A stretch of DNA of 63,901 bases, counting the filler. It is 5 parts of 5 records of this genome, joined end to end, with 100 filler letters (N's around TTAATTAATTAA, not from the genome) between each part and the next. Parts side by side here need not be neighbours in the genome. Positions count along the whole stretch, not along the records: positions 1 to 13,823 come from SRR2962707_1099; 4 more parts are not named here. One strand, 5' to 3'. Shown in pieces: positions 1-33,640 of this stretch. The translations under genes and the position numbers were made by a program. Below the pieces are notes generated by a model. That model searched no databases, was not told the DNA's origin, and worked only from the letters and a program-made list of their open reading frames with translations. Numbering within the stretch: the stretch's first letter is position 1; each line of letters begins with the position of its first letter.

Positions 1-1
1 G

Positions 2-793
2 CCCAAGGAAATGCTGCCGGTCGTCGACAAGCCGCTTATCCAGTATGCGATCGAAGAGGCCGAGGCCGCCGGGATTGAACAGTTCATGCTGATTACCGGG
101 CGCGGCAAGAACCTGATGGAAGATCACTTCGATCACGCTTTTGAGCTGGAACAGATTCTCGAACAGCGCGGCAAGACCAGGGAACTGGACATGGTCCGGC
201 ATTTCCCGGAGCCGAGCAAAATCCGTTATACGCGCCAGCAGAAAGCCCTGGGTCTCGGCCATGCCATCTGGTGTGCGCAGGATTTCGTGCGCGACGAGCC
301 GTTCGCGGTGCTGCTGCCCGATGACATGGTGCTGGCCAAACGGGGCTGTCTGTCACAGATGATGGACGCCTATGCCGAGGTTGGCGGCAACATCGTCGCC
401 GTCACCGAAGTGCCGCGCGAACAGACCAATCGCTACGGGATCCTGGACATCGAAAGCGATGACGGCCGTCTCGCCAAGGCCTGCGGTCTGGTTGAAAAGC
501 CGGATCCGGCGGATGCGCCGTCGACCCTGTCGATCATCGGACGGTATATTCTGCAGCCGCAGATATTTGAACATCTGGACAAGAAAATCGCCGGGGCCGG
601 CGGCGAAATCCAGCTCACCGACGCCATTGCCGCGACACTTGATCAGGTGCCGTTTCATGGTCTTCGCTATGAAGGGCAGCGCTATGACTGCGGCTCGAAA
701 CCCGGCTTCATTGCCGCCAACGTGGCCTACGCGCTGGAACGTGCCGACATGGAAGATGACGTCCGCGCGGCGCTGGCGGAAATTCTGAAGTAG
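2..793 (+). CDS. galU: UTP--glucose-1-phosphate uridylyltransferase (5' partial)
   Basis: Frame open from base 2 ([16 protein letters not shown]); motifs [32 protein letters not shown]. Confidence 0.96.
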
Positions 794-843
794 CCCCATC
801 GCCCGGTTGCGGTCGGGGCCTGAGATTTTCGGGGGAGATCAGC

Positions 844-2325
844 ATGACGGGATATATTCTCGCGATTGATCAGGGCACGACGTCCTCTCGGGCGATGGTG
901 CTGGACGATGCCTATAACGTGCAGGGTTCGGCACAACAGGAATTCAGGCAGATTTACCCGGCGTCTGGCTGGGTCGAACATGACCCCGAAGACATCTGGC
1001 AATCGGTGATCGGCACCTGCAAGGACGCGATCGCCGCAGCAGGGATTGCGCCTGCTGCCATCGCCGGGATCGGCATCACCAATCAGCGCGAAACCACCAT
1101 CGTCTGGGACCGGAAGTCCGGCAAGCCGCTGCACAACGCCATCGTCTGGCAGGACCGGCGTACCGCCGATGTCACGAACACTCTGCGCACGGACGGCTTC
1201 GAGCCCGCGGTTACTGCCAAGACCGGCTTATTGCTCGACCCATATTTTTCGGCGACCAAGATCGCGTGGATTCTGGACAATGTCGCCGGTGCCCGGAAAA
1301 AAGCGGAAAAGGGCGATCTCGCTTTCGGCACCGTCGACAGCTATCTGATCTGGCGGCTGACGGGAGGCAAACGGCACGTCACCGATGCCACGAATGCCAG
1401 CCGGACACTTATATATGACATCCATGCAGGCGACTGGTCGGATGAACTATTGGCGCTGTTCCGGGTGCCGCGCGCGATGCTCCCGGAGGTTCTCGATTGC
1501 GCCGCTGATTTCGGCGTGACCTCGGCGGACATATTCGGTGCCGGCATCCCGATCACGGGTGTCGCCGGTGATCAGCAGGCGGCGACCATCGGCCAGGCCT
1601 GTTTTCAGCCGGGGATGGTGAAGTCCACTTACGGCACCGGCTGCTTCGCGATGCTGAACACCGGCTCAGAACCGGTGAAATCACAAAATCAGTTGCTGAC
1701 GACGATCGCCTATCGACTGAAGGGGGATGTGACCTATGCGCTCGAAGGATCGATTTTCGTCGCCGGTGCTGCCGTGCAATGGCTCAGGGACGGGCTTGGT
1801 CTGATCGAACGGGCGGATCAGACCGGACCCATGGCGGCAGCGTCAAAGGATGACGGGGTTTATCTGGTCCCGGCGTTCGTCGGTCTGGGCGCACCGCATT
1901 GGGACCCGGATTGCCGGGGCGCGATCTATGGGCTGACGCGCGACACCGGCCCCGCCGAGCTGGCCCGGGCCGCGCTCGAAAGCGTCTGCTTTCAGACCCT
2001 GGACCTGATCGAGGCGATGCACGCCGACTGGACCCCGGATGGCGAGACGGTGCTGCGTGTCGACGGCGGCATGGTGGCGTCGGAATGGATGCTGCAATGC
2101 CTGGCCGACATACTTGCGGCCCCCATCGACCGGCCGGAGATGCTGGAGACGACGGCGCTGGGGGCGGCGTACCTGGCGGGCCTGCAAGCGGGGATTTACG
2201 GCGCGCCGGAAACCTTCGCCACCGAGTGGGCCTGCGCCAAACGCTACGCGGCGCAGATGGACGCCGAAACGCGGGCGCGCAAGATCGAGGGTTGGCGCAC
2301 GGCGGTCCGGCGAACGCTGCTTTGA
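844..2325 (+). CDS. glpK: glycerol kinase
   Basis: FGGY-family motifs [65 protein letters not shown] upstream. Confidence 0.96.
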
Positions 2326-2338
2326 TGTTTGTCTTTCG

Positions 2339-3217
2339 TCAGCGCCGCTGACCCAGGGTGACGGCGATCAGTTCTTCATAGAAGCCCTGGGCAATATGCG
2401 CTTGCGGCGATTCCGTCAGTTCCGCGAGACCGATGGTACGGGTCACCGGCGGGTCGCCGAACGGCAGCTGTTTCAACGGCAGCGGGAAGGGCGAGGCGAT
2501 GCAGTGTTTCGGAATGATCGAAACACCAAGACCATTGAAGACCATCGTCGCCACCGCTTCCAGGTTATCAAGCTCCATCGTCATGTTCACCTTGAGGCCG
2601 CGCTTCTTCAGGTTCTCGGCAATGATCTTCCCGGTCCATGCCCGGCTGTTGAAGCGGATGTAGGGATAGTCTTCGAGCACCTGGGTGTCCTGAGTCGCTT
2701 TGGTGTCCGCCGGTGCGATGACGACAAACGGCTCGCGGGCAATCGGCCGCCATTTAATGGAGCGTTCGTTTTCCGGCGGTGCACTGGTGATCGCGGCGCC
2801 GATCTTGCCTTCATGGAGCCGCGCCACCAGCTCGCCGGAATGATTGTCGATGACGTGGATAACCAGATTGGGAAAGCGGCGCTGACAGGCGATCAGCGCT
2901 TTCGGCAGGATGCCGGTGAGTGTCGTCGGCATGGCGCCGATGGCGAATTCACCGGAAATTTCCCGGGATGCCGCCGCGCTGGTGAGCTTGTCGTATTGCA
3001 GCACGACTTCCTGTACCAGTCCCAGAATGGCGCGCCCGCGCTGATTGAGTACAGGTGGGCGTTTTGTCCGATCAAAGAACTCAGCGCCTAAAGCCTGTTC
3101 AATCGTCTTCATCTGCAGACTGACGGCAGACGGCGTACGGTTCAGAATCTCCGCCGTGGTGATGAAGCTGCCGGTTTCCGCAACGGTCAGGAAAGTCTTT
3201 AAGTAGCTGATTCTCAT
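2339..3217 (-). CDS. LysR-family transcriptional regulator
   Basis: Start trimmed to MRISYLKTFLTVAETGSFITTAEILNRTPSAVSLQMKTIEQALG (LysR HTH); 292 aa; C-terminal GLGVSIIP; divergent from the TRAP operon. Confidence 0.93.
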   Translation of the reverse strand: MRISYLKTFLTVAETGSFITTAEILNRTPSAVSLQMKTIEQALGAEFFDRTKRPPVLNQRGRAILGLVQEVVLQYDKLTSAAASREISGEFAIGAMPTTLTGILPKALIACQRRFPNLVIHVIDNHSGELVARLHEGKIGAAITSAPPENERSIKWRPIAREPFVVIAPADTKATQDTQVLEDYPYIRFNSRAWTGKIIAENLKKRGLKVNMTMELDNLEAVATMVFNGLGVSIIPKHCIASPFPLPLKQLPFGDPPVTRTIGLAELTESPQAHIAQGFYEELIAVTLGQRR

Positions 3218-3467
3218 ATGAATTCTCTCCGAGTATCGGGGGTGGCGGTCTTCGCTGGGTGGCTGATGCGCACGTAACGCCCATGATTTGCTCAATATGA
3301 TTATAAAGTAAAAATATTTTAGGATAACCGTAAATATAACTCGTTTGCCTGATTTTGTAGCCTGACATAGCCTTTTTGCTGAAATTCGACACAGCGGCTC
3401 CCATCAGAATGACCGCCGTCGATACCGATTTTTTCTGAATCGGACAAAACAGAGAGGTATAAAAATC

Positions 3468-4682
3468 ATGACAATTGAGAGCGATAAAAGAGAAGCCGAG
3501 CTTCACAGCCGCCGGCAGTTTCTGGAGGTCGGTGCCAAGTACGGCATGACGGCTGCTTTTCTGGCCGCCGCATCAACAGCGGGCGGGGTTTCCATTGCCG
3601 AAGCCGCCGAAGCGATCTCGGCCGTGGAAAAAGCCAAAAAAGACGCGGCGGAACATTCCCTGCTGTTCGGTTGCGGTGGCACCCCGAACCGTTGGCCCGA
3701 AGGACAGATTTTCAAACAGAACTTCGATCTGACGGGGCTGCTGCAGTTGAAGGAAGGCATTGAACGCAACACTGCCGGCAAGGTGCATGTCGACATCAAA
3801 TACGGCGGCGCACTTGGCGGTCAGGTCGCCGTCGGCCGCAAGGTCCAGCAAGGCATCGTTGCCGGTTCACAGTCTTCATCGCAGAACATGGCGGCCCACG
3901 CGCCGGTCTGGAACGTCACCGATTTTCCGTACGTGATCGGCTCGGTCGAGAACTACTGGCGCTGCGTCTTCTCGAAGGAAGTCAATGACACGTTGCGCAA
4001 GACGTCCATGGCGCAGGGGGTTATTCCGCTTTGCATCTTCCCGCAGACCCGTTGGCTCGAGCTGAAAATGGGCCTGCCCGCCGAAGTGCGTCATCCGAAA
4101 CAGCTCGACGGGCTGAAAATGCGCGTCACCGGCTCCAAACTTGAACAGACGGCGTTCAACATCCTGCCCGCCAACCCGACCCCCATCAACTGGGGCGAGG
4201 TCTATTCCGCGGTCAAGGAAGGCGCTGTTGACGGGATCCACGTGGGTACCGGTTCGGTTGCGGACGCGGGCATCTATGAAGTGGTCGGCCAGCTTGTCGA
4301 CACCGAATGGATGTTCAACGCCGACACGCTCTATATGAGCACCAAATGGTTCAACGGTCTGCCGGCCGCAGTGCAGGGCGGCGTCATGGAAGGCGCCTAT
4401 GAAGCGCAGGTCTACAACTATGCGATCTATGAACCGGCGTTCAAGTTCCAGGCCGGTATCCGCAAGGATTCCCCGCCGGATGCGGCATGGAACACCGTCA
4501 AGGCGAAGAAAGTCTACCTGACAGAGTCCGAACGTGCGGAATGGGTCGATGCGCTGTCCTACGAGCGCAACAAGGAAATCTACGACCCGCTGATCGAGCG
4601 TTTCGGCAAGACCGAGTACGAAACGGTCAAACGTGTGGCGAGTTCCGGTGATCCCGTGATCCCGCGCCGCTGGTGGATGTAG
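3468..4682 (+). CDS. TRAP transporter substrate-binding protein (DctP family) with Tat signal
   Basis: SRRQFLEVG twin-arginine motif plus hydrophobic stretch; DctP motifs LDGLKMRV, PTPINWGEVYSAVKEGAVDG, WFNGLPAAVQ; followed by dctQ/dctM; SD GAGAGG. Confidence 0.9.
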   Translation: MTIESDKREAELHSRRQFLEVGAKYGMTAAFLAAASTAGGVSIAEAAEAISAVEKAKKDAAEHSLLFGCGGTPNRWPEGQIFKQNFDLTGLLQLKEGIERNTAGKVHVDIKYGGALGGQVAVGRKVQQGIVAGSQSSSQNMAAHAPVWNVTDFPYVIGSVENYWRCVFSKEVNDTLRKTSMAQGVIPLCIFPQTRWLELKMGLPAEVRHPKQLDGLKMRVTGSKLEQTAFNILPANPTPINWGEVYSAVKEGAVDGIHVGTGSVADAGIYEVVGQLVDTEWMFNADTLYMSTKWFNGLPAAVQGGVMEGAYEAQVYNYAIYEPAFKFQAGIRKDSPPDAAWNTVKAKKVYLTESERAEWVDALSYERNKEIYDPLIERFGKTEYETVKRVASSGDPVIPRRWWM

Positions 4683-4696
4683 TATAGACTGTGACT

Positions 4697-4731
4697 GCGG
4701 CCCCGGGACGGTTCGCCGTTCCCGGGGCTGC
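4697..4731 (+). terminator. GC-rich hairpin after dctP (likely mRNA stabiliser or partial terminator)
   Basis: GCGGCCCCGGGACGG-TTCG-CCGTTCCCGGGGCTGC with no U-tract; typical position after a solute-binding-protein gene. Confidence 0.55.
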
Positions 4732-4776
4732 GCACCGTTCTTTGCCGCACCGGCGCAGTAGGGGAGACCGACTTTC

Positions 4777-5304
4777 TTGTACAATCAATGGAAAGCAGTT
4801 TGGTCGTGGCTTGATCAAAAGATCGAGTACGTCGTGAACTCGATGTTCTACGGCTACCTGGCCAGCATAGTCGTGATCGAGGTGTTCCGCAGATATGTGC
4901 TGAGCGATGCCAGCTCCTGGGGCGAGGAAACCGCGATCTATGCCTTTATTTGGATGACCTATATCGGTGCGGCGCGGGGGGTCCGTCAGCGCAAACATCT
5001 GACGATCGATATTCTCCGACGGCACTTCAACAGGGCCGGGCAGTTCTGTCTGCATATGCTGAGCGATATATGCTTTCTGATCCTGGCAGCCGTGATCGTG
5101 GTGACGTCGATCAAGGCCGTCGACGGTGTCATGCAGTTCGGCCAGACCTTTCAGGGCGCAGATGTGCCGATGTGGCTGGCGATGATCGGCGTGCCGATCG
5201 GCTGGACGCTGATCGGCGTCCGCGTTCTGCAGCGCTCGGTCCACGCCATCAATGTCTTCCGCCGCGGCGAGGTGGAAGAAGAAGCCAGAGCGATCAGCGA
5301 GTAG
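4777..5304 (+). CDS. TRAP transporter small permease (DctQ)
   Basis: Four hydrophobic segments; FRRYVL..SSWGEETAIYAFIWMTYIGA..RKHLTIDIL; TTG start with SD GGGGAG. Confidence 0.9.
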   Translation: MYNQWKAVWSWLDQKIEYVVNSMFYGYLASIVVIEVFRRYVLSDASSWGEETAIYAFIWMTYIGAARGVRQRKHLTIDILRRHFNRAGQFCLHMLSDICFLILAAVIVVTSIKAVDGVMQFGQTFQGADVPMWLAMIGVPIGWTLIGVRVLQRSVHAINVFRRGEVEEEARAISE

Positions 5305-5309
5305 AATTC

Positions 5310-6587
5310 ATGGACACGAGCATCATCATTTCCCTGACAATTCTCGGCGTCCTGTTGATGCTGGGCGTAGAAATTTTCGTCTGTCTCGGCATCGGCGCGA
5401 TTCTGCTGATCGTGCTGACCGGCACCTTCACACTGGACAATGTCGGGATTGCCGCATTTTCGTCGATCGAGATTTTCCCGCTGCTGGCGATGCCGCTGTA
5501 TATTCTGACAGGCGATCTGATTTCGGAATCAGGTATCGCGCGGCAGCTGGTCCGCTTTGCCCGCGCCACGGTCGGCTGGATCAGCGGCGGTCTGGCGCTG
5601 ACGGTTCTGGTCGCTTCCGGGCTGTTTGCCGCGATCAGCGGGTCGAACTCGGCGACGGTCGCGGCGATGGGCAAGATGCTGGTCCCGGAAATGAAAAAGG
5701 ACGGCTATCCGGAAGACTTCGCCGGCGCGGTAACGGCCTGCGGCGGCACCGTCGGCATCATCATCCCGCCCAGTATCGTCTTCGTTCTTTATGGGGTCGC
5801 CGCCGGGGTGCCGGTCGGAGACCTGTTTATCGGCGGCATCATACCCGGCATGCTGATGATCACCGCGATGTCGGTTGTCGGCTGGTATATGGCAAGGCGT
5901 AACGGCTGGGGCACCAAAACAGAGTTCACGTTTCGCAATGTCCTGATCTGCGCCTGGGATGCAAAGCTCGCCTTCGGTGCCAGCTTCATCATTCTTGCGG
6001 GTATTTATGGCGGCGTGTTCACGCCGACGGAAGCCGCTGCTGTCGCCGTTGCCTACTGCGTGATCGGCGGGCTGTTCATCACACGCGAGCTGAAGGCCAG
6101 GGATCTGCCGGATATCATGAACCGCAGCGCCGACATCAACGGTCTGATCGCACCGGTGATCGCCATGGCGCTGATCCTGTCGCAGATCCTGGCCGTGCTC
6201 GGGGTGCCGGAACTCGGGGTCAATGCCCTGCTTGGATTCTCCGACGATCCGGTTGTGCTGACGCTGTGCATTCTCTGCATTCTGCTTGTCGCCGGCGCGA
6301 TCATGGAGGCAACGCCGAACATTCTGCTTCTGGTCCCGTTGCTGGTCCCCGTCGCAACCAAGATCGGCATCGACCCGGTGCATTTCGGCGTCATCATGGT
6401 GGTCGCACTGGCCATCGGCTTCGTGACGCCGCCGGTCGGGCTCAATCTTTTCGTGGCGTCTTCGATCACAGGGGTGCCGTTCACGCAGATCGCCTGGAAG
6501 GCGACGCCGTTTATCCTCGCGTTGCTGATTTCGCTGCTGGTGATCACCTTCGTGCCTGAATTGACGACGATGTTGATCTCGCACTGA
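5310..6587 (+). CDS. TRAP transporter large permease (DctM)
   Basis: Start trimmed to MDTSIII; FPLLAMPLY, FAAISGS..ATVAA, GIIIPPSI, GGVFTPTEAAA, GIDPVHFG, TPPVGLNLFV; 425 aa. Confidence 0.95.
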   Translation: MDTSIIISLTILGVLLMLGVEIFVCLGIGAILLIVLTGTFTLDNVGIAAFSSIEIFPLLAMPLYILTGDLISESGIARQLVRFARATVGWISGGLALTVLVASGLFAAISGSNSATVAAMGKMLVPEMKKDGYPEDFAGAVTACGGTVGIIIPPSIVFVLYGVAAGVPVGDLFIGGIIPGMLMITAMSVVGWYMARRNGWGTKTEFTFRNVLICAWDAKLAFGASFIILAGIYGGVFTPTEAAAVAVAYCVIGGLFITRELKARDLPDIMNRSADINGLIAPVIAMALILSQILAVLGVPELGVNALLGFSDDPVVLTLCILCILLVAGAIMEATPNILLLVPLLVPVATKIGIDPVHFGVIMVVALAIGFVTPPVGLNLFVASSITGVPFTQIAWKATPFILALLISLLVITFVPELTTMLISH

Positions 6588-6699
6588 GCGATGCCGTTTC
6601 TCACGGTCATCAGAAAAGAGAGATAAAATACTGGCCTAATAGGTTGTCGCCCCGGCACAATGCGAAAAACAAAAAGTTAGACTGAGGAAGGAAACAAAT

Positions 6700-9039
6700 A
6701 TGTCCGAACAACCGCTCGGCAGTCCCGATGATGCCGCCGGAGCACCGGCAGGTGGACTTGAAAGCCCCCCGGTGCGCGCCACCATACCGGCCCATGAAAT
6801 CGGCACCGTATCGCTGACTCCTACCGGGAATTTCGAAGCCGGCAGCTATCAGACCTTCACGCTGGTCTACACAGCGGGCAAGTTCGGTATTGATGATTCC
6901 GGATCGATGCGGATCTGTTTCCGGTTTGCCAGCGATCAGACCCGCCCGCAGTTTGAAAATCCCGAGGGACCGAATTTTACCACGATCACCGCCTCGAACG
7001 GGGCTGTGCTGCAATATCATTACGACCCCAAGGGCAACGTCCGGCCCTGGGACCGCACGCTTTATATCAAAGTGGTGAAGGGGTTCCTGACCAAGGGCGA
7101 CACCATTACCGTGGTGTTCGGTGATACCTCGCAGGGCTCGCCGGGAATGCGACTGCAGACGTTCTGTGAAGAAACTTTTGAATTCCACACCCTGATCGAT
7201 CCGATCGCGACGTACTGTTATCAGCCGGTCCCGGAACAGCCGGTGATCCGCATCGTCCCGGGCGTGCCGGAAACCTATGTGATGGTGGCGCCGACCCTGA
7301 TCGCGACGAGCGAGACGTTCGCGCTCAAGATGAAGGGTGAAGACAAGTGGGGCAATCCGTCGGATCAATGCGATGCGACGTTCGCGCTGCGTGTGAAGGG
7401 GGACGCCGTTATAGACGGTCTGCCGGAACAGGCGACCTTCAAGCCCGGCGCCTTCACCAATATCATCGAGGGTCTCTCCATAGCTGAACCCGGACAGGCG
7501 GTGATCGAACTTGTCGATGCGGACGGCACCGTCATGGCGCAAACCAATCCGATCCGCGCCGCCAAGTCCCCCGCGCTCAAGCATTACTGGGGTGATTTGC
7601 ATGGCCAGTCCGAGGAGACCATCGGCACCGGCAGCGCCGATGCCTATTTCAAATACGCCCGCGATCTGGCCTTTGTCGATGCCACCGGCCACCAGGGGAA
7701 TGATTTCCAGATCACCTCGCCGTTCTGGCTGGAGCTTGACGAACTGTGCGAACGCTACGACGACCCCGGCTCGTTCATTGCCATCCCGGGATATGAATGG
7801 TCGGGTAACACCGGGCTCGGCGGTGACCGCAATATCTATTTCCCGGAGCAGGGCCGCACGCTCAGGCGTTCGTCGCATGCGCTGGTGCAGGACCACAGCG
7901 ATATCGGCAACGACGCCAACAGTGCGCAGGAACTTTTCGATGCGCTGGCCGCCAACAAGGAATGGGACGTGGTCGGCTATGCGCACTGCGGTGGCCGTTA
8001 TGCGGACGTGAAGCTGGCGCACGACGGTCGCTTCGAGAAATCCATGGAGATACACAGTTCATGGGGCACGTTCGAGTGGCTGGTGAAGGATGCCTTCGAA
8101 ATGGGCTACCGGGTCGGCATCGTCGCCAATTCCGACGGCCACAAAGGGCGGCCGGGCGCGAGCTATCCCGGCGCATCGCTGTTCGGCGCCGTCGGCGGGC
8201 TGACGTGTTTTCTGGCACCGGACCTGAGCCGGGACTCCATTCTCGATGCCATGCGCAAGCGCCGTCACTATGGGACCACCGGCGGGCACGGCGGGCGCAT
8301 GTACATCGATGTCAAAGCCGGCTTTGACGGTCCGGCAACGCTGTATCACGACGACCCGCGTCTGGGGCCGAGTGAAGGTCATACGACAAGCACGGCCCTG
8401 ATGGGCGATATCGTGCATCTGCCGTCGGGCAGTGCCACGCTCGATGTGGAAATAACCGGCGCGGCCCCGATCGAACGGGTCGATATCTATAACGGGCTGG
8501 ACCATATCGAGACCATCCGCCCCTATACGACGGAAGACCTCGGCAACCGTATCCGGGTGCTCTGGGAAGGCGCGGAATATCGTGGCCGCTTCCGCCAGGT
8601 AATCTGGGACGGCGAAGCGCATCTGTCAGATAACAAGATCATCGATGCGAAGCCGATCAACTTCTTCAACCGTGACAAGACCCTGGACCGGACGTCGGAT
8701 ACCTCGCTCAAGTGGCGCGCACTGACCACCGGCAATATCGGCGGGTTCGATGTCTGGGTCGAGGATGCCTATGGCGGGACGCTGAAGATCGAAACCCCGT
8801 TGGTCAAATGCGGCGTGCCGCTGGAAGAAATCGACATCAATGACGAGGTCTTCGACAAAAGCGACATTCTGCCCCGGTATCTGAAGATTTTCCGGCTGCC
8901 GGCGGAGAACCCGCATCGGCATGTGTCGTTCACACGCACGCTCGATCTCAAGGACCACGGCGACAACCCGATCTTCATCCGCGTCACGCAGGAAGACGGC
9001 ACCCTGGCCTGGACCAGCCCGATCTATATCTATCGATAG
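6700..9039 (+). CDS. DUF3604-like / PHP-fold putative metal-dependent hydrolase
   Basis: 779 aa; YWGDLHGQSEE, GYEWS..GGDRNIYF, AHCGG, MEIHSSWG, GIVANSDGHKGRPG, RRHYGTTG and terminal IRVTQEDGTLAWTSPIYI match the DUF3604/PHP pattern; SD GGAAGG; no signal peptide. Confidence 0.75.
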   Translation: MSEQPLGSPDDAAGAPAGGLESPPVRATIPAHEIGTVSLTPTGNFEAGSYQTFTLVYTAGKFGIDDSGSMRICFRFASDQTRPQFENPEGPNFTTITASNGAVLQYHYDPKGNVRPWDRTLYIKVVKGFLTKGDTITVVFGDTSQGSPGMRLQTFCEETFEFHTLIDPIATYCYQPVPEQPVIRIVPGVPETYVMVAPTLIATSETFALKMKGEDKWGNPSDQCDATFALRVKGDAVIDGLPEQATFKPGAFTNIIEGLSIAEPGQAVIELVDADGTVMAQTNPIRAAKSPALKHYWGDLHGQSEETIGTGSADAYFKYARDLAFVDATGHQGNDFQITSPFWLELDELCERYDDPGSFIAIPGYEWSGNTGLGGDRNIYFPEQGRTLRRSSHALVQDHSDIGNDANSAQELFDALAANKEWDVVGYAHCGGRYADVKLAHDGRFEKSMEIHSSWGTFEWLVKDAFEMGYRVGIVANSDGHKGRPGASYPGASLFGAVGGLTCFLAPDLSRDSILDAMRKRRHYGTTGGHGGRMYIDVKAGFDGPATLYHDDPRLGPSEGHTTSTALMGDIVHLPSGSATLDVEITGAAPIERVDIYNGLDHIETIRPYTTEDLGNRIRVLWEGAEYRGRFRQVIWDGEAHLSDNKIIDAKPINFFNRDKTLDRTSDTSLKWRALTTGNIGGFDVWVEDAYGGTLKIETPLVKCGVPLEEIDINDEVFDKSDILPRYLKIFRLPAENPHRHVSFTRTLDLKDHGDNPIFIRVTQEDGTLAWTSPIYIYR

Positions 9040-9070
9040 GTCCGATCGGTCATGGCCTACAATCTCGAAC

Positions 9071-9158
9071 CGTCACCCTGAACTCGATTCAGGGTCCATA
9101 ATTTCCCGTCGCGCAAACGATGTGAATGATTCTGGACCCCGGCTTTCGCCGGGGTGAC
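9071..9158. repeat. REP-type palindrome doublet (alphaproteobacterial GTCA...TGAC family)
   Basis: GTCACCCTGAACTCGATTCAGGGTCCA ... CTGGACCCCGGCTTTCGCCGGGGTGAC: two self-complementary units in inverted arrangement. Confidence 0.8.
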
Positions 9159-9266
9159 AGGTTAAGGTCTGTCCGCCATCTTGCCGAAGGCCCCTCGGCG
9201 GAGTAGGTTCGCGCAAAACCGGCGTGGGCCGGGTCCGCATTCGTTTAAAAGGGTACGTTCGCCGCT

Positions 9267-11033
9267 ATGAAAGCATCGCAAATCGGTATTCAGGTTCTTC
9301 GTGAAATGCCTTCCGACGCCGACGATCTGGCGGCGGCATGGCTGATCCGGGGCGGTTACATTCACCGCCATGCGTCGGGGATATTCACCTTCGCGCCGTT
9401 GATCTATCGGGTCGAGAAAAAAGTCTCCGACATCATCAACGAGGAAATCACCCGTTTTGGCGGAATCCAGGTCCGTTTCCCGCTGCTGCAGAGCGCCGAA
9501 ATCTGGAAGCAGTCCGGCCGTTGGGCGGTCTATGAGCATGCCAATCTGATGTTCCAGTCGGAAGACCGCCGGGGCCGTCTGTTCGGTCTCAGCCCGACCG
9601 CCGAAGAGGTCGCTTGCGATCTCGGCAAACATCTCATCCGCAGCCCCAACCAGCTGCCGCTGAACGTGTTCCAGAACCACATGAAATTCCGCGATGAACT
9701 GCGCCCGCGCTCGGGCCTGCTGCGGTCGCGCGAATTCATCATGATGGATGCCTATAGCTTTGACATCGACGAAGACGGCCTCGACCTGTCGTACCGCAAG
9801 ATGCGTCAGGCCTATCACGCGATCTACAAGAAGATGGGCTTCAACTACATTGTCGTGCAGGCGGATTCCGGCGCGATCGGCGGCTCGGCCTCCGAAGAGT
9901 TCATGGCCGTTTCCGAAGCCGGTGAAGATACGCTGCTATATACCGATGAAGGCTATGCCGCCAATCTGGAGCGTGCCGCCAGTGAAGCCCCGGCCCCCGT
10001 GCTGGCCGAAGACGGCGATATGGAAATCATCGATACCCCGGAAAGCGAGACCATCAAGAAAGTCGCCGATCTGGTCGGCGTGCATCCGTCCGCCGTGCTC
10101 AAGACACTGGTCTTCGATCTTGTCTATCAGGACCGGGTCGAACAGGTGGTGGTGCTGATCCGCGGTGATTGCGACGTTAACGAGGTCAAGCTCGGTAACC
10201 ACTTCGGCGCCATCGCCGCGCAGCCCTCAGACGCCGATACGGTGCGCAACGTGACCGGATGCGAGCCGGGCTACGTCGGTCCGGTCGGCATCAAGCCGGG
10301 CGCGAAAATGATCGCCGATAAAACCATCGAGGGTCTGACCAGTCTCGTTTCCGGGTGCTGTGAAAAGGACCGCCATGCGGTCAGGGCGCGTCCGGGCCGG
10401 GACTTCGAGATGCCGCCGGTCGCCGACCTGCGCCTCGCCAATGCCGGTGAAATCGCACCCAACGGCCAGCCGTTGCAGCAGTGCAAGGGGATCGAAATCG
10501 GCCACGTCTTCAAGCTCGGCACCAAGTATTCCGAGCCGCTGAATGCGGGCGTCATCGATTCCAATCAGGTTTTCCAGAATTTTCACATGGGCTGCTACGG
10601 CATCGGCACGACGCGGATTCTACAGACCATCGTCGATCAGAACTGTGACGCCGAGACGGGGATCAAATGGCCGGTCGTGCTGGCGCCTTTCCATGCGCAC
10701 CTGATTCCGGTCAAGGCCGACAACCCCGAGATGATGCAGGCCGCCGAGGACATGGGCGCGAAACTCGAGGCGCTCGGCTGCGAGTGCATCGTAGACGACC
10801 GCAAGGGCTCGCTCGGCTCCAAGCTCAAGGATGCGGACATTCTGGGCATGCCGCTGCGGGTCGTGTTCGGCCGCGATCTGGCGGACGGCAAGGTGGAGAT
10901 TTTCAACCGCCTCACGGATGAGAAGGATATCGTGCCGATCGCGGACGCCATTGAGCGGCTTGCCGGCTTCGTCAAAAGCGAACTCGACGCCGCCGACGCC
11001 CGCCGTGATGCGGTGGTTGCCGAAGGGGTTTGA
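9267..11033 (+). CDS. proS: proline--tRNA ligase, long form with INS editing domain
   Basis: LREMP, GIFTFAPL, WKQSGRW, LSPTAEE, KFRDELRPRSGLLRSREFIMMDAYSF, INS region (LKTL, GYVGPVG), GIEIGHVFKLGTKYS, MGCYGIG; 588 aa. Confidence 0.95.
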   Translation: MKASQIGIQVLREMPSDADDLAAAWLIRGGYIHRHASGIFTFAPLIYRVEKKVSDIINEEITRFGGIQVRFPLLQSAEIWKQSGRWAVYEHANLMFQSEDRRGRLFGLSPTAEEVACDLGKHLIRSPNQLPLNVFQNHMKFRDELRPRSGLLRSREFIMMDAYSFDIDEDGLDLSYRKMRQAYHAIYKKMGFNYIVVQADSGAIGGSASEEFMAVSEAGEDTLLYTDEGYAANLERAASEAPAPVLAEDGDMEIIDTPESETIKKVADLVGVHPSAVLKTLVFDLVYQDRVEQVVVLIRGDCDVNEVKLGNHFGAIAAQPSDADTVRNVTGCEPGYVGPVGIKPGAKMIADKTIEGLTSLVSGCCEKDRHAVRARPGRDFEMPPVADLRLANAGEIAPNGQPLQQCKGIEIGHVFKLGTKYSEPLNAGVIDSNQVFQNFHMGCYGIGTTRILQTIVDQNCDAETGIKWPVVLAPFHAHLIPVKADNPEMMQAAEDMGAKLEALGCECIVDDRKGSLGSKLKDADILGMPLRVVFGRDLADGKVEIFNRLTDEKDIVPIADAIERLAGFVKSELDAADARRDAVVAEGV

Positions 11034-11054
11034 TTGCCGGTTCCGGGCTTCCCA

Positions 11055-11132
11055 CGTCACCCCGGCGAAGGCCGGGGTCCAGGGTAATCGTTCCGACTTG
11101 TGCTCTGGATTCCGGCATGCGCCGGAATGACG
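11055..11132. repeat. REP-type palindrome doublet
   Basis: CGTCACCCCGGCGAAGGCCGGGGTCCAG ... CTGGATTCCGGCATGCGCCGGAATGACG, between convergent genes. Confidence 0.8.
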
Positions 11133-11140
11133 GCACGGGA

Positions 11141-12145
11141 TCAGTCTTTCCACGCCTCGGCCAATAGACGATATGAATTGCGACGGTCTTCCTGGGCATG
11201 GGTCCAGGTCAGGACCACGGCTTCGTCGATGCCGAGTTTTCCAGCCAGCGCCTCCAGTTGCTGATAAACGCTTTGCCCGGTGCCGATGATGGCGCCGGCA
11301 CGCAGCTCGGCGATGCGGGCCTTATCGGCGTTAGTGTAGTCATATTCAGCGACAGTTTCCGGCGGCTCGATGGGGCGGAGATCGCCTTTCTCGCGCAGCA
11401 CCTTCCAATGCGCTCGGGACGTGAACAGGCGTTCCGCGTCGGCCTCGGTTTCCGCCGCCAGCGCCCACACACAGACATTGGCGATGGGCTCGGGATAGCG
11501 CGCGCTGGGTTTGTAGTTGTCGCGGTAAATCTGAAACGCGCGTTCGACACCGCGGCCGTCGGTGATGAAATGCGCGAAACAGTATGGGATGCCGAAATGC
11601 GCCGCGACCTGTGCGCCGTAATCCGAGGTGCCGAGCATCCAGATTTCAGGCGAGGTCTCACCCTCGGGCCTGGCGACCAGACCGTTGAAGGGATGCCCGG
11701 TGATCAGCGGTTCGCCGGATACCCACGCCATCAGATCACGCACGTTGGCGGGGAAATGCTCCGCATCCTCGTTGGCGTTGGGATTGAGCGCAAAGGCGGT
11801 CTTGCCGTCGGACCCCGGCGCGCGGCCGAGACCGAGGTCGATGCGGCCCGGCGCCAGCGCATCGAGGACGCGAAACTGCTCGGCGACCTTCAGCGGCGCA
11901 TAGTGCGGCAGCATGATCCCGGCGCTGCCGATACGGATCGTCGCCGTCGACTGGGCAATCGCGGCCATGACGATTTCTGGCGCCGAGCCGACGATGGTCG
12001 GATGGTTGTGATGCTCGGAAACCCAGAACCGCTTGTAGCCGAGTTCTTCACAATACTGTGCCAGAGCCACGGTATTGCGAATGGTCTCAGCCTGGGGAAC
12101 ACCCGTGGCGGCGGTTGACTGATCGAGGACCGAAAGCTGAACCAT
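11141..12145 (-). CDS. LLM-class (luciferase-like) flavin-dependent monooxygenase, YhbW-like
   Basis: LSVLDQS, GYKRFWVSEHHN, IRIGSAGIMLPHYAPLKVAEQF, PGRIDLGLGRAPGSD, FAHFI. Confidence 0.92.
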   Translation of the reverse strand: MVQLSVLDQSTAATGVPQAETIRNTVALAQYCEELGYKRFWVSEHHNHPTIVGSAPEIVMAAIAQSTATIRIGSAGIMLPHYAPLKVAEQFRVLDALAPGRIDLGLGRAPGSDGKTAFALNPNANEDAEHFPANVRDLMAWVSGEPLITGHPFNGLVARPEGETSPEIWMLGTSDYGAQVAAHFGIPYCFAHFITDGRGVERAFQIYRDNYKPSARYPEPIANVCVWALAAETEADAERLFTSRAHWKVLREKGDLRPIEPPETVAEYDYTNADKARIAELRAGAIIGTGQSVYQQLEALAGKLGIDEAVVLTWTHAQEDRRNSYRLLAEAWKD

Positions 12146-12528
12146 CAGCTTTCGGCGTCCACGTCTGCAAACACCTGTTTGACGTGGCGCATGCTGTCGA
12201 GCGCGGCGGGCAGGCCGCAGTAAATCGCCGTCTGCAGCACGGCTTCGACGATCTCTTCCCGGCTCAGGCCGTTGTTCAGAGCACCCCGGATGTGGACCGA
12301 CAATTCGTGCGGCCGGTTCAGCGCCGTCAGCATGCCGATGTTCATGAAGCTGCGGGTGCGGCGGTCGAGACCCGGGCGTGTCCAGCAGGCGCCCCAGCCG
12401 TATTCGTTGACCAGATCCTGTAGCGGCCGCGTCAGTTCGTCCGTGGCGGCGAGGCTTCTGTCGACATAGTCGTCACCCAGCACCTCGCGGCGGACTTTCA
12501 TCCCAGCGTCGTATTGTTCCTTGTTCAT
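12145..12528 (-). CDS. carboxymuconolactone decarboxylase family protein (PcaC-like)
   Basis: Start trimmed to MNKEQYDAGMKVRREVLG; WGACWTRPGLDRRTRS, ELSVHIRGALNNG, AIYCGLPA; its stop overlaps the LLM start (TGATG). Confidence 0.9.
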   Translation of the reverse strand: MNKEQYDAGMKVRREVLGDDYVDRSLAATDELTRPLQDLVNEYGWGACWTRPGLDRRTRSFMNIGMLTALNRPHELSVHIRGALNNGLSREEIVEAVLQTAIYCGLPAALDSMRHVKQVFADVDAES

Positions 12529-12614
12529 GGTGTCTTCCTTCCCTGTTTCGAGCCATCTTGCCAGGCAGCATAGCCGACCGTCTGCAAGCGGCAAGGGAGG
12601 TTGCGCGGGGGAGG

Positions 12615-13679
12615 TCAGGATCGGGCGGTCACACGGGCAGGGGATTGTCTTTTCGGCGGCGGTGCCGTGGTGCCGCGGATCATGATGTCGGTCGGCAATG
12701 CTGCGGGGGCATCCGGGGCTTCGCCGGCAATGCACTGTAACAGATACTCGGCAGAGCCCTTGCCCATGCGCCGGCTCGGCACATGGATCGTGGTCAGGCC
12801 CGGTGACAGATGTTCGGCCAGCGGCAGATTATCAAAGCCGACGATCGAGACATCTTCGGGAACTCTCAGGCCGAGGTGTCGGGCTTCCAGCAGGGCGCCG
12901 ACCGCCAGGACATCGTTGCCGCAGAACAGCGCCGTCGGCCGCTTCGTTTTTGGGCGCTGCATCAAGACCTTGAAGGCATCGCGTCCGGCCCCGATCTCAT
13001 AGGGTTTTTCGATCAGCATCGCAGGGTCGAGCGAAAGTCCCCGGGCGCTAAGTGCCGCCGCAACACCCTGTACGCGTTCTCGCGCACGATCGTTGCCGCT
13101 TTGAATGCCGGCAATGACGCCGATCCGTTTGTGGCCGAGTTCCAGCAGGTGCTCGGTGATGCGTTGGGCGGCGCCGGGATTGTCGAAGCCGACACAGGGA
13201 TAGGGTGATGCATCGGCATAGGTCCAGGTGAGTACAAACGGACAGTGATGCTGCGACAGCATGTGCAGGGTTTCCGGTCTGTGGTCGCGGCCGACGAGAA
13301 TCATGCCGTCGACACCTCGCTCCAGCAGGGCGCGAACCTGAGTGTTTTCATGATCCAGATCGTAATTGGTGACAGCCAGCAAGAGCGTCTGGCGTGCTTC
13401 GGCAAGACGGTTTTCGACAGCATCGACACCGCTCGCGAAAATGGCGCTTTCCAGTGTCGGGATCACCGCGCCGATCGTATACGAACGCGCGGAGGCGAGG
13501 GCGCGGGCAGCACCGTGACGGACATAACCCAATGCTCTGATCTGTTGCTCGACACGTTCACGAAGTGCCGGACGCACGGCTTCGGGACTGTTCAGAACCC
13601 TGGACACCGTCGCCGTCGATACCCCGGCGGCGTCGGCGATGTCCTGTAAGTTGGGTGTTTCAGACGGCTTCAAGGGCAT
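12615..13679 (-). CDS. LacI-family transcriptional regulator
   Basis: LQDIADAAGVSTATVSRVLN HTH, ARALAS hinge, PTALFCGNDVLAVGA, VPEDVSIVGFD, LTTI. Confidence 0.95.
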   Translation of the reverse strand: MPLKPSETPNLQDIADAAGVSTATVSRVLNSPEAVRPALRERVEQQIRALGYVRHGAARALASARSYTIGAVIPTLESAIFASGVDAVENRLAEARQTLLLAVTNYDLDHENTQVRALLERGVDGMILVGRDHRPETLHMLSQHHCPFVLTWTYADASPYPCVGFDNPGAAQRITEHLLELGHKRIGVIAGIQSGNDRARERVQGVAAALSARGLSLDPAMLIEKPYEIGAGRDAFKVLMQRPKTKRPTALFCGNDVLAVGALLEARHLGLRVPEDVSIVGFDNLPLAEHLSPGLTTIHVPSRRMGKGSAEYLLQCIAGEAPDAPAALPTDIMIRGTTAPPPKRQSPARVTARS

Positions 13680-13742
13680 GCGCGATTATATGCTTTTTTA
13701 GCGGATTGACTCTGATCGCAGATGGTGCGAACGTCACTCAGT

Positions 13743-13756
13743 TGTAAGCGCTTACA
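13743..13756. promoter_or_regulatory. LacI-family operator (perfect 14-bp palindrome)
   Basis: TGTAAGCGCTTACA about 65 nt upstream of the lacI-family start; fits the TGnnAnCGnTnnCA-like pattern of LacI/GalR operators. Confidence 0.8.
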
Positions 13757-13823
13757 TTTTTTCAGCAAGATATATTTTGCGCGGAGAACTAAAGCATGCA
13801 ATAATGGGATATATAGTCTCATT

Positions 13824-19155: not shown

Positions 19156-19998
19156 ATGGAAACAGCACTCACCAACCGCCTCTCGACCCTTAGTCATCCG
19201 CAACGGATGGCGGTTTTTCGGTTGCTTATGCGGCGCTATCCCGACGCGCTGCCAGCAGGTGAAATCGCCCAAGCATTGACCCTTAAATCCAGCACGGCTT
19301 CCGTATATCTCGCCGCACTTACCCAAGCCGGCATGATCTCTCAGCGGCGCGACGGAACGCGGCTGCTGTATACCGTGAACCTTGATGCCACCCGAGATGT
19401 CGTCTCGGACCTGTTTCTTGATTGCTGCCGTGGTCGGGCCGATCTGTGCCCGCCCCAATTTTCTGACCTCCTCAGGAGCATCTCTCCCATGTCTGATCAA
19501 AAGTATAACGTCTTGTTCGTATGCACCGGCAACTCTGCCCGGTCGATCTTTGCCGAGACCATTCTGCGCGACTTGGCAGGTGATAAATTCACCGCTTTTT
19601 CCGCAGGCACGACACACCGGTCCGAGCTGAACCCCTTTGCGGTGGAAATGCTGGAATCCAAGGGGCACGATATTTCGCTTCTTAGGTCCAAGAACGTGAG
19701 CGAATTCCAAGGGGCGGATGTGCCGAAAATGGATTTCGTCTTTACCGTTTGTGACCGTGCGGCGAACGAGGAATGCCCAACATGGCCCGGCCAGCCCGTG
19801 TCAGGCCATTGGGGTTTGCCCGACCCGGTCAAGGCCCAAGGAACGGACGCTGAAAAGCGCCTAGCCTTTCAGCAGACATATGGCGCGCTGCACAACCGGA
19901 TCAGCGCGTTTACCTCGCTGTCGTTCGAAGCGTTGGACCGCGCGGCCTTGCAAAAACACGTCGACGCGATCGGCAAACACACATCCACACAGGAATAA
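19156..19998 (+). CDS. ArsR-family regulator fused to LMW-PTP-type arsenate reductase (ArsR-ArsC)
   Basis: N-terminal wHTH (LSHPQRMAVFRLL) with CCRGRADLC metalloid site; C-terminal VLFVCTGNSARS, VCDRAANEECP, HWGLPDP. Confidence 0.92.
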   Translation: METALTNRLSTLSHPQRMAVFRLLMRRYPDALPAGEIAQALTLKSSTASVYLAALTQAGMISQRRDGTRLLYTVNLDATRDVVSDLFLDCCRGRADLCPPQFSDLLRSISPMSDQKYNVLFVCTGNSARSIFAETILRDLAGDKFTAFSAGTTHRSELNPFAVEMLESKGHDISLLRSKNVSEFQGADVPKMDFVFTVCDRAANEECPTWPGQPVSGHWGLPDPVKAQGTDAEKRLAFQQTYGALHNRISAFTSLSFEALDRAALQKHVDAIGKHTSTQE

Positions 19999-20001
19999 AT
20001 C

Positions 20002-21000
20002 ATGACAACTTATGCACTTAACGGCCTAGGCCGGATGGGTAAACTTGCCCTGCGCCCCCTGCTGGAACGCGGTGCCAAGATCGCGTTTATCAATGATGCC
20101 GTGGGCGACCCGGCCATGCACGCCCATCTGCTGGAATTTGATTCCGTCCACGGGCGCTGGCCCGCCAAGTTCGAGGCCGATGACACTTCGATCAGCATCG
20201 ACGGCACGCGCATTCCCGTGACCAGCACTCGCAATCTGGACGACCTGCCATTGAACGGCGTTGATGTGGTGATCGACTGCACCGGCGCGTTCAAGACCGA
20301 GGCCAAGCTGGCCCCGTACTTTGCCGCTGGCGTTAAAAAGGTCATCGTATCGGCCCCGGTCAAAGACGGCCCCACCGCCAATATCGTTTTTGGCGTCAAT
20401 GACGATGTCTATGACGCAGACGCACATCACATCGTAACCGCAGCCAGCTGTACAACGAACTGTCTGGCCCCAGTGGTCAAGGTTCTGCTTGAAGGGATCG
20501 GCATCAAACACGGGTCGATCACGACCATCCATGATGTGACCAATACCCAGACAATCGTGGACCGCCCAGCCAAGGACATGCGCCGCGCGCGGTCGGCCTT
20601 GACCAACCTGATCCCCACGACGACCGGATCGGCGACAGCAATCACATTGATCTATCCTGAACTGACCGGAAAGCTGAACGGCCACGCTGTGCGCGTGCCG
20701 CTGCTAAACGCCTCCATCACTGATTGCGTATTCGAGATGGCCCGCGAAACCACCGTCGACGAAGTGAACGCCCTGTTCGAGGCCGCAGCCAGTGGCCCAC
20801 TAAAAGGCATCTTGGGCTATGAAACACGTCCGCTGGTGTCGTCGGATTACACCAACGATACCCGCAGCAGCATCATCGATGCGCCATCGACCATGGTGGT
20901 GAACGGCACGCAGGTGAAAATCTATGCGTGGTATGACAATGAATACGGCTATGCCTACCGGCTGGTCGATGTGGCCATGATGGTGGGTGACAAGCTGTGA
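20002..21000 (+). CDS. ArsJ-associated glyceraldehyde-3-phosphate dehydrogenase
   Basis: [44 protein letters not shown]; lies between arsRC and arsJ. Confidence 0.93.
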
Positions 21001-22262
21001 CACGTCCGGCGGGTTTTGCAGCCTATATGACGGTGACGGCGGCCTATTGGGCGTTCATGCTGACCGATGGTGCCTTGCGCATGCTGGTATTGCTGCATTT
21101 TCACACCCTTGGTTTTTCGCCCGTGCAACTGGCCTATCTGTTTGTTCTCTACGAGATCGCAGGCGTGGTGACCAACCTGTCGGCGGGGTGGATTGCCGCG
21201 CGGTTCGGGCTGACCTCGACGCTTTATGCGGGGCTTGCCTTGCAGGTCGTTGCATTGCTGGCACTGGCGCAGCTTGATCCTGCGTGGGGCATCACGGCCT
21301 CTGTGGTTTTTGTCATGCTGGTCCAAGGTGTGTCCGGCGTCGCCAAAGATCTGGCCAAGATGAGCTCGAAAAGTGCGGTAAAAATTCTGGCACCAACGGA
21401 TGGTGGCGGATTGTTTCGCTGGGTGGCATTGCTGACCGGATCAAAGAACGCCGTCAAAGGCTGCGGGTTCTTGCTGGGTGCAGCACTGCTGGCGGTCCTT
21501 GGGTTCGTGCCATCGGTGCTGACCATGGCCGCGATCCTGTTCATCATCCTGATCGGCGTGGTGATTGGCATGCCAACGGGCCTTCCGGTCGGGCGCAAAG
21601 ACGCAAAATTCTCCGAGGTTTTCTCAAAGAACCGCAACATCAACTGGCTAAGTGCCGCACGCCTGTTTCTGTTCGGCGCACGCGATGTGTGGTTTGTGGT
21701 CGGCATCCCGATCTATTTCTACGCAGTGTTGTCTGACGGATCAGAGGCCGGAAACCGCGCCGCGTTCTTTATGATCGGATCGTTCATGGCGGTTTGGACC
21801 ATCCTGTACGGCGTCGTGCAGGGCTGGGCCCCACGCATCCTGCGCGCCGCATCCCGCAACGATGCCGAAATTTTGGCGCAGGCCAGAATATGGGTGGCTG
21901 TTTTGATGATCGTCCCGGCCTTGCTCGCCACTGCGGTCTGGCTCGCACCTGCGCCGTCCACCCCGCTGACGGTGACGATCATCTTGGGGCTTTTGGTCTT
22001 TGGCGGGATATTCGCGGTAAATTCGGCGCTACATTCCTTTTTGATCCTCAGCTTTACGGATGCAAAACGGGTGACGATGGATGTCGGGTTTTACTATATG
22101 TCCAACGCGGCAGGCCGGTTGGTTGGCACCCTGCTGTCGGGGTTCACCTATCAGATAGGCGGGCTGCCCCTGTGCCTTGGCACGGCTGCCGGCATGATCT
22201 TTTTTAGCTGGCTCGCCACATCGCAGCTTAGCAACAAGACCGCGACAGCGGTTCATTCATAA
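20997..22262 (+). CDS. arsJ: organoarsenical (1-arseno-3-phosphoglycerate) efflux MFS permease
   Basis: [81 protein letters not shown] overlap with gapdh. Confidence 0.93.
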
Positions 22263-30999: not shown

Positions 31000-31023
31000 G
31001 GTTCCTCCTCCCTCACTCTCCTT

Positions 31024-31114
31024 CGTCATTGCGAGAAGCGAAGCGACGAAGCAATCCAGGGGCTGCAACCGATGCTTGCCGCTCTGGATTGCTTCGCTTG
31101 CGCTCGCAATGATG
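31024..31114. repeat. REP/RPE-type palindrome doublet
   Basis: CGTCATTGCGAGAAGCGAAGCGACGAAGCAATCCAG ... CTGGATTGCTTCGCTTGCGCTCGCAATGATG; common alphaproteobacterial intergenic repeat form. Confidence 0.85.
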
Positions 31115-31130
31115 GACGCAGACGCAGGTC

Positions 31131-33630: not shown

Positions 33631-33640
33631 GTTTCGTACC

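Follow-up and report, generated by a model that had tools for sequence, protein, structure and literature searches.

In a 63,901-nt stretch of DNA (the window; five records joined with 100-N fillers, positions 1-13,823 being SRR2962707_1099) we identified a locus of a marine alphaproteobacterium encoding a LysR-type regulator, a complete tripartite ATP-independent periplasmic (TRAP) transporter, with DctP, DctQ and DctM all detected, and a 779-aa enzyme predicted to have the polymerase and histidinol phosphatase (PHP) fold. We propose that these genes act as a LysR-regulated, substrate-inducible uptake-and-catabolism unit, in which the importer would bring in a small organic anion, likely a hydroxylated sulfonate or a conjugate, and the PHP enzyme would transform it, a reading to which we give a probability of about 0.5. 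It draws on the gene set and order, the fold of the enzyme and its conserved residues resembling metal ligands, a conserved box on the LysR side of the locus, and natural deletion variants found in related genomes.

In the proposed mechanism, LysR would sense the substrate or product and activate the divergent promoter, and DctP, exported by the twin-arginine translocation (Tat) pathway, would bind a small organic anion in the periplasm, a hydroxylated C2-C4 organosulfonate or conjugate being the most likely candidate. DctQM would bring the captured anion into the cytoplasm, where the co-transcribed 779-aa enzyme would act on what was imported, or on something closely derived from it, at a PHP-type centre of two or three metals, putatively built from D299, H301, E366, H429, E450 and D479, usually together with H331, H452 and H481. 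The product would then enter pathways encoded elsewhere in the genome, for example those of sulfoacetaldehyde and Xsc. Hydrolysis is the default chemistry for the PHP fold, and speculatively the enzyme might hydrolyse an ester or amide bond, or catalyse a cleavage releasing sulfite or sulfate. A first-pass annotation of the window had described the locus as a one-enzyme operon that imports an anionic ester and hydrolyses it in the cytoplasm; the single unit and a sulfonate-type substrate remain part of our interpretation, whereas a conserved linkage between enzyme and transporter and the hydrolysis of an ester as yet do not.

Gene organization and the conserved box beside lysR

Gene families were assigned from Pfam and NCBIfam profile scores compared with the cut-off of each model, and every gene named in the first-pass annotation was found at its place (Table 1). 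The order is lysR (-), followed on the + strand by dctP, dctQ, dctM, the 779-aa enzyme gene, hairpins and proS, so that lysR is indeed divergent from dctP-dctQ-dctM and the enzyme gene lies on the same strand as dctPQM. The flanking genes are housekeeping genes, galU and glpK before the locus and proS (NF006625, 617.6 bits) after it. LysR carries HTH_1 and LysR_substrate domains, and its probable start is ATG 3217 (292 aa), since the NCBIfam family models match from residue 27; the true start of dctM, judged from in-frame translation, is ATG 5310 and not the 4950 start of the open reading frame (ORF).

We surveyed linkage in 42 genomic loci that encode close relatives of the enzyme, and found a galU/glpK-enzyme-proS backbone common to 14 of them. 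Among these backbone loci, L002 and L019 carry lysR-dctPQM, while lysR is present and the transporter absent in L001. The LysR orthologues are 93% (L002), 89% (L019), 65% (L001) and 64% (L039) identical to that of the window, L039 being a locus of Sneathiella litorea with the order lysR-dctPQM-aldehyde dehydrogenase-enzyme in a non-syntenic context. The lysR-dctP spacer of 250 nt contains an AT-rich box of about 50 nt beside lysR, which is kept in all four lysR-dctP spacers compared (window, L002, L019 and L039) and holds a TTAsGATAAmCGTAA dyad that we take to be of the T-N11-A type. In L001, where dctPQM is absent and lysR retained, the same box sits directly 5' of the enzyme gene, and this locus appears to have lost the transporter and kept the regulator, the candidate operator and the enzyme together.

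The spacer between dctM and the enzyme gene revealed no terminator-like site on the + strand in a consensus scan and no Rfam match, and its fold was not more stable than those of shuffled sequences (z +1.05); it is 91%, 90% and 74% identical in L002, L015 and L019, respectively. In the one true metatranscriptome (X3), two 151-nt contigs fell on the 5' end of the enzyme gene (6695-6845 and 6853-7003), and runs of uncertain type gave assembled contigs over 6540-6611 and 6579-6806, which do not establish a single transcript. From the sequence comparisons we infer that the unit is co-transcribed and the enzyme under LysR control. Moreover, DctP proteins at least 86% identical to that of the window were found in three genomes only, all with an adjacent enzyme gene, and at L060 a 43%-identical DctP occurs 6 kb away from a 46%-identical enzyme homologue. 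The view of the five genes as one LysR-controlled unit, already held in the first pass, thus agrees with the common strand, the terminator-free spacer, the conserved box, its position in L001 and the Sneathiella cassette, and we conclude that the five genes probably form such a unit in this lineage, with an enzyme that can do without the importer.

Comparison of DctP with solved TRAP binding proteins

The N-terminus of DctP is twin-arginine-like (SRRQFLEV), corresponding to a Tat-type signal. The protein belongs to a small subfamily of 83 clusters with 43-96% identity, whose members of about 405 aa are some 65 residues longer than a typical DctP. The C-terminal extension of this subfamily ends in two invariant tryptophans, W402 and W403.

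The nearest solved relative of DctP is RpHpsK, the binder of 2,3-dihydroxypropane-1-sulfonate (DHPS) of the HpsKLM system of Ruegeria pomeroyi (24gc; PMC13335735), matched with E 7.5e-32 over 227 residues, followed by the isethionate binder IseP of Oleidesulfovibrio alaskensis (8t9t, E 1.7e-20). According to PMC13335735, the sulfonate is anchored in RpHpsK by Ser125, Asn128, Arg184 and Arg207. These four residues align with S137, N140, R195 and R219 of DctP, which are kept in 27, 29, 29 and 29 of the 29 subfamily members compared; R219, the counterpart of Arg207, lies in the KMRV motif (residues 216-219), which is intact as the first-pass annotation stated. The two proteins thus share the DctP family, a marine alphaproteobacterial origin and four aligned conserved anchors, but the DctP of the window differs from RpHpsK in its additional 65 or so residues, its Tat-type signal and its C-terminal extension with the invariant tryptophan pair, and no hpsNOP genes lie near its transporter. 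The names of carrier genera were absent from one supplementary text file of PMC13335735.

IseP (PMC11668362) is likewise a sulfonate-specific TRAP binder, but DctP is more distant from it than from RpHpsK. IseP is found in anaerobes and linked to a glycyl-radical isethionate lyase (PMC13335735), whereas no glycyl-radical sulfonate lyase genes were found in the 64-kb window. From the residues shared with the two solved binders we infer a ligand of sulfonate type for DctP.

Fold and family of the 779-aa enzyme

In agreement with the first-pass annotation the enzyme appears to lack a signal peptide, its best N-terminal 15-residue Kyte-Doolittle mean being 0.63 as compared to 1.53 for DctP. An AlphaFold2 model built from an alignment of 44 sequences with 31-88% identity was confident (predicted local distance difference test, pLDDT, 92.6; predicted template modelling score, pTM, 0.91), and a model of the catalytic domain only, from a 24-sequence alignment, was discarded (pLDDT 54.8). 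The catalytic domain has the PHP fold, with VIA-align matches to 2anu (Z 18.7), 3e38 (Z 18.2), PsfC of Pseudomonas syringae (7rty, Z 15.0), EndoQ (5zb8, Z 13.7), BAD_1165 (Z 11.4) and RNase AM (Z 10.3); the PHP matches at Z 13.7-18.7 were well above the matches to immunoglobulin-like (Ig) domains (Z <=10). A whole-model Foldseek search of the PDB returned mostly Ig-like and GH2 accessory domains with template modelling (TM) scores <=0.22, 3e38 alone being meaningful, and a sequence search of solved structures with the protein and the 44-sequence family profile gave no significant match.

The candidate metal ligands are highly conserved, with D299, E366, E450 and D479 kept in 43, H301 in 42 and H429 in 41 of the 44 sequences, and H331, H452 and H481 less strictly (34, 35 and 37 of 44). 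Four arginines, R433, R484, R521 and R533, are kept in at least 40 of the 44. The usual PHP ligand set consists of His, Asp and Glu and opens with H-x-H, and the first metal motif of the enzyme is D-x-H.

Although TM0559 (2anu) and BVU_3505 (3e38) share the fold of the PHP domain (root mean square deviation 2.9 over 196 and 3.3 over 221 residues, respectively), they have no detectable sequence similarity to the enzyme, even with the family profile, and at 224-343 aa they lack the approximately 290 N-terminal and 245 C-terminal beta-sandwich residues that the enzyme adds. PsfC, with 244 aa and 15% identity, matches over 201 residues, and we take it to be an iron-dependent oxidative decarboxylase of fosfomycin biosynthesis, a phosphonate pathway, and not a hydrolase; the PHP fold is therefore not limited to hydrolysis, and C-S cleavage is conceivable.

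The first-pass assignment to DUF3604 held in part. PF12228 matches the enzyme with 39.7 bits, above the cut-off of 20.4, but only residues 300-421 are covered, corresponding to positions 94-209 of a model of 591. Of the 120 best homologues, 118 carry a precomputed PF12228 label, the neighbours in the Atlas are clusters of DUF3604, and two paralogues in genome G001 match PF12228 over similarly short stretches. The family is probably best described as DUF3604-related, with the rest of its architecture outside the PF12228 model. The CehA/McbA carbamate metallohydrolases (NF038032) were considered and rejected: the score of 23.5 bits was below the cut-off of 80, and therefore the enzyme is not a member, the likeness consisting of weak local similarity over residues 464-606, in the latter half of the PHP domain.

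Among 8000 candidates scored, 7601 were homologues of the enzyme. At 50% identity the family comprises 4358 representatives, of which 749 match at E <=1e-30; it retains the 720-800-aa architecture down to 31% identity, and extends over Alphaproteobacteria, Nitrospirota, Chloroflexota, Latescibacterota, Poribacteria and a metagenome-assembled genome of an Asgard archaeon. To our knowledge, there is no known sulfatase or desulfonating enzyme with a PHP fold. It is a possibility, though one we hold to be rather unlikely, that the family represents a new PHP-fold class in marine organosulfur cycling, whose substrate would be an abundant sulfonate or sulfated metabolite of algae. Such an enzyme would cleave a sulfonate conjugate or sulfate ester, or break the C-S bond with release of sulfite, and the LysR-TRAP-enzyme unit would then be the simplest, one-enzyme form. 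The first-pass statement that DUF3604 has no assigned function agrees with the literature searched (DUF3604, PF12228, IPR022028, PHP + sulfonate), in which no functional study was found; two papers mention DUF3604, and both deal with other matters than its function. One of them, a preprint of October 2026, describes DUF3604 as poorly characterised and states that neither metal binding nor activity had been reported for it. Another preprint (10.1101/2024.12.10.627767) makes no mention of PHP, DUF or TRAP.

Genomic context of the enzyme and of DctP

The substrate types put forward in the first pass, phosphate, phosphonate and sulfonate, fared differently, as the sulfonate option was supported, whereas phosphate and phosphonate had no contextual support in the annotated neighbourhoods. 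In L016 and L018, which encode enzymes 70-71% identical to that of the window, the enzyme gene lies 3' of xsc on the same strand, 218-238 nt apart, and the xsc-enzyme pair faces sauS and a two-subunit ADP-forming CoA ligase (L016 2226-12158). Both markers score well above their NCBIfam cut-offs (xsc 1019 bits against 620, sauS 770 bits against 600), and the arrangement looks like a sulfoacetate/sulfoacetaldehyde cluster containing an orphan enzyme. A second thiamine-diphosphate enzyme is encoded convergently downstream of the xsc-enzyme pair in both loci.

Of 14 further loci with a DctP of this subfamily, 4 encode TauE, 5 a dehydrogenase resembling sulfolactaldehyde reductase and 4 an aldehyde dehydrogenase, and the neighbours at L060 comprise a sulfatase, a HisD-like dehydrogenase, TauE and the enzyme homologue. 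On the side of the enzyme, a tally over 25 lineages (107 of 123 loci with a recognisable enzyme ORF, 16 including L002 being dropped, based on crude ORF calls) placed TauE near the enzyme in 5 of the lineages, and a sulfatase near it in 4. In the close relatives G001-G003, xsc lies at another place in the genome. Among 151 Alphaproteobacteria, drawn evenly and compared without phylogenetic correction, 8 of 11 carriers of the enzyme had Xsc, as against 12 of 140 genomes without the enzyme (one-sided Fisher p 3e-6). The control PcaH was not enriched (4/11 carriers and 25/140 non-carriers).

Genome G001 has three enzyme paralogues, each beside a binding-protein-dependent anion transporter, namely DctP-TRAP, a TRAP transporter of TAXI type together with a sulfatase, and a tripartite tricarboxylate transporter (TTT). 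The second of these sets (L210, G001:C1:846000-864000) has a 61%-identical paralogue, which is divergent from the TAXI-type TRAP, a protein of metallo-beta-lactamase fold and a type I sulfatase and is flanked by a GntR regulator on its other side, while at L211 (G001:C8:317000-335000) a 35%-identical paralogue occurs near TctA and a LysR regulator. In loci of Burkholderiales type (L165, L169, L175, L188 and L195), a GntR regulator, a dehydrogenase resembling 3-hydroxyisobutyrate dehydrogenase, an enzyme homologue and a TctC binding protein recur, with a type I sulfatase added in L169, L175 and L188.

The enzyme could instead be a classical PHP phosphoesterase. Its substrate would then be a phosphonate or a phosphorylated compound, whether the anion that is imported or an intermediate formed downstream of Xsc, for example an acyl phosphate. 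The best fold matches, 2anu, 3e38 and 3o0f, were deposited as predicted PHP phosphoesterases (the titles of 2anu and 3e38 give no demonstrated substrate), PsfC presumably belongs to a phosphonate pathway, and the enzyme gene of L016 directly follows xsc, whose product yields acetyl phosphate, all of which would suit such an activity. However, no pho, phn or phosphonate genes were present in any annotated neighbourhood, the first metal motif is D-x-H instead of the usual H-x-H, and xsc of G001-G003 has neither pta nor the enzyme gene beside it, making this explanation very unlikely in our judgement. A role of the enzyme as replacement for pta after xsc was rejected on the same observation in G001-G003, and a fixed product-side role is therefore without comparative support.

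Linkage and substrate weighed against alternative explanations

Several observations weigh against the proposed uptake-and-catabolism unit, some concerning the linkage of its genes and others its substrate. As to linkage, the recurrence envisaged in the first pass was not borne out, as a TRAP transporter of the window type adjoined the enzyme in only 3 of the 42 related loci. In 10 of the 14 backbone loci, L015 not counted, both lysR and TRAP were lacking, and the enzyme gene directly followed glpK or galU. Moreover, L015, with an enzyme 96% and GalU 100% identical to those of the window, has undergone a clean deletion of about 4.2 kb comprising lysR-dctPQM, with 30 nt of the lysR 3' end fused to the last 25 or so nt of dctM, followed by the whole spacer and the intact enzyme gene; the enzyme can therefore function in the absence of this importer.

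These observations would also be expected if enzyme and TRAP transporter were mere neighbours without a common substrate, the enzyme being part of the galU-glpK-enzyme-proS backbone and the cassette a separate accessory module. Besides the cassette-free backbone loci and the loss in L015, this explanation is favoured by the size of the enzyme family, whose 4358 representatives far outnumber the 83 clusters of the DctP subfamily, and by the heterogeneous neighbourhoods of the enzyme across the family. In contrast, mere adjacency accounts poorly for L001, where lysR and its box are still joined to the enzyme gene after the transporter is gone, for the Sneathiella cassette, which accompanies the enzyme in an unrelated context, and for L060, which pairs distant homologues of both proteins. 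For a gene present in approximately 7% of genomes, adjacency by chance would give far fewer than three independent contexts, and we therefore consider a neighbourhood without common function improbable. In a quick maximum-likelihood tree, the loci bearing the cassette or remnants of it were scattered in one clade of 17 rows, a pattern most readily explained by an ancestral cassette that was lost repeatedly. Judged from these comparisons, the link between enzyme and importer appears to be real but rare and dispensable.

As to the substrate, DctP has N284 and D286 at the positions of Asp272 and Gln274, the hydroxyl ligands of DHPS in RpHpsK, D286 being invariant in the subfamily; the ligand is therefore not DHPS bound in the known way, and we did not file DctP as HpsK. 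In the alignment, the anion end of the putative pocket appears to be kept and the distal end to differ from RpHpsK. The Arg and Asn anchor residues of TRAP proteins occur in carboxylate binders too, and are therefore necessary but not specific for a sulfonate. Profile scans found no hpsNOP, xsc or tauE in the 64-kb window, and in Sneathiella no Xsc scored above the cut-off. TauE is a broad family of permeases whose members are not restricted to sulfite export, and most of the 25 lineages had no sulfur-related neighbour of the enzyme. The lifestyle control SoxA was enriched in carriers as well (10/11 and 50/140, p 4e-4), and none of the 10 enzyme loci from the evenly drawn genomes had TauE, a sulfatase, Xsc or TRAP nearby, 4 of them having some transporter within two genes (TTT, MFS, EamA and MFS).

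The compound might accordingly be a non-sulfur organic acid, such as an ester of a hydroxy- or sugar acid, a lactone or an amide, with the sulfonate signals reflecting the lifestyle of marine heterotrophs. The anchors common to carboxylate binders, the SoxA enrichment and the sulfur-free evenly drawn loci speak for this, the neighbours including TTT, MFS, EamA, aminotransferases, amidohydrolases and a 2-hydroxyacid dehydrogenase, as do the M20 peptidases that adjoin the enzyme in L028-L032 and L041. On the other hand, both of the nearest solved relatives of DctP bind sulfonates, xsc and sauS, which are specific single-copy markers, flank the 70%-identical orthologues, and the enrichment of Xsc held within SoxA-positive genomes (8/10 carriers and 10/50 non-carriers, p 5e-4, kinship ignored). 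Hence, we regard a substrate without sulfur as unlikely, and a sulfonate or conjugate taken up by DctPQM and transformed by the PHP enzyme is the reading that we retain.

Significance

The enzyme belongs to a very large family distributed over many phyla to which no reaction has been assigned in the literature searched, and the locus described here offers a practical entry point, with the enzyme paired with a single high-affinity binding protein open to ligand screening. Because importer and one enzyme would act in one unit, the ligand of DctP could reveal what the enzyme does. DHPS and isethionate are both major carriers of sulfur and carbon in marine fluxes, and identification of the DctP ligand would probably annotate thousands of genes and might reveal new chemistry on the PHP scaffold. 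Informative natural variants exist, in which the cassette is deleted, the transporter is deleted with the regulator kept, or the cassette occurs in another context, and Sneathiella litorea DP05 is a cultured carrier. New from this locus are the series of natural deletions, the fusion of the LysR box to the enzyme gene, the comparison with RpHpsK residue by residue, the phyletic test with its controls and the negative result for the evenly drawn loci.

Other features of the window

The features of the locus are listed in Table 1. Downstream of the enzyme gene, the first-pass annotation had noted a doublet of repetitive extragenic palindromic (REP) elements. The two hairpins are real, and an 11-nt inverted repeat accompanies them, but only one 27-nt element recurs, with two copies in 64 kb; the second copy is inverted, lies after proS (11056-11082) and is 26/27 identical, so that the copies flank proS. 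The terminator-like hairpin just before proS is a weak call, because shuffled sequences would be expected to give just as many such sites over the region.

Table 1. Positions of the genes, domains and sequence elements of the lysR-dctPQM-enzyme locus in the window.
Feature	Position	Strand	Evidence
lysR, LysR-type regulator	ORF 2339-3295 (TTG 3295)	-	PF00126 54.6 bits, PF03466 122.6 bits
AT-rich conserved box ATTATAAAGTAAAAATATTTTAGGATAACCGTAAATATAACTCGTTTGCCTG in lysR-dctP spacer, candidate LysR operator/promoter region	3300-3351	.	
dctP, TRAP substrate-binding protein, 404 aa	3468-4682	+	PF03480 127.8 bits
dctQ, TRAP small membrane subunit	4777-5304	+	PF04290 90.4 bits
dctM, TRAP large membrane subunit, 425 aa	5310-6587	+	PF06808 341.4 bits; TIGR00786 371.6 (cut-off 268)
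dctM-enzyme spacer with Shine-Dalgarno GAGGAAGGAAA, 112 nt	6588-6699	+	sequence reading
PHP-fold metalloenzyme (predicted), 779 aa, cytoplasmic, multidomain	6700-9039	+	partial DUF3604 match, AlphaFold2 model
Enzyme domain: disordered (predicted)	residues 1-27		
Enzyme domain: YcnI-like Ig	residues ~36-188		7me6 Z 12.0 (VIA-align)
Enzyme domain: second Ig	residues ~187-290		
Enzyme domain: PHP catalytic	residues ~293-530		VIA-align
Enzyme domain: C-terminal beta-sandwich region	residues 534-779		
Hairpins, GC-rich, 3' of enzyme gene	9076-9094 and 9137-9154	+	sequence reading
27-nt REP-like element, GC-rich palindromic, holds second hairpin	9132-9158		blastn of 9040-9266 vs window
Terminator-like hairpin with T-rich tail, just before proS	9224-9238	+	consensus scan

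Elsewhere in the window, an ArsJ-associated glyceraldehyde-3-phosphate dehydrogenase (548 bits, cut-off 450) and an ArsJ organoarsenical efflux permease (542 bits, cut-off 400) are encoded at 20002-22262, adjoined by an ArsC-like gene at 19156-19998. The region 29986-38256 contains three paralogues of a CurA-like NADPH-dependent reductase (29986-31248, 31131-32156 and 36940-38256), all scoring below the equivalog cut-off, which enclose an efflux system of MacA-MacB-NodT type (32269-36834). Large ORFs are found at 39615-50777, including those of 1059 aa (43651-46830) and 720 aa (48615-50777), with no NCBIfam match at E 1e-20. The sole other sulfonate-flavoured gene of the window, at 24068-25333, encodes an ABC permease that is nearest to the taurine permease TauC, with 236.9 bits against a cut-off of 342.

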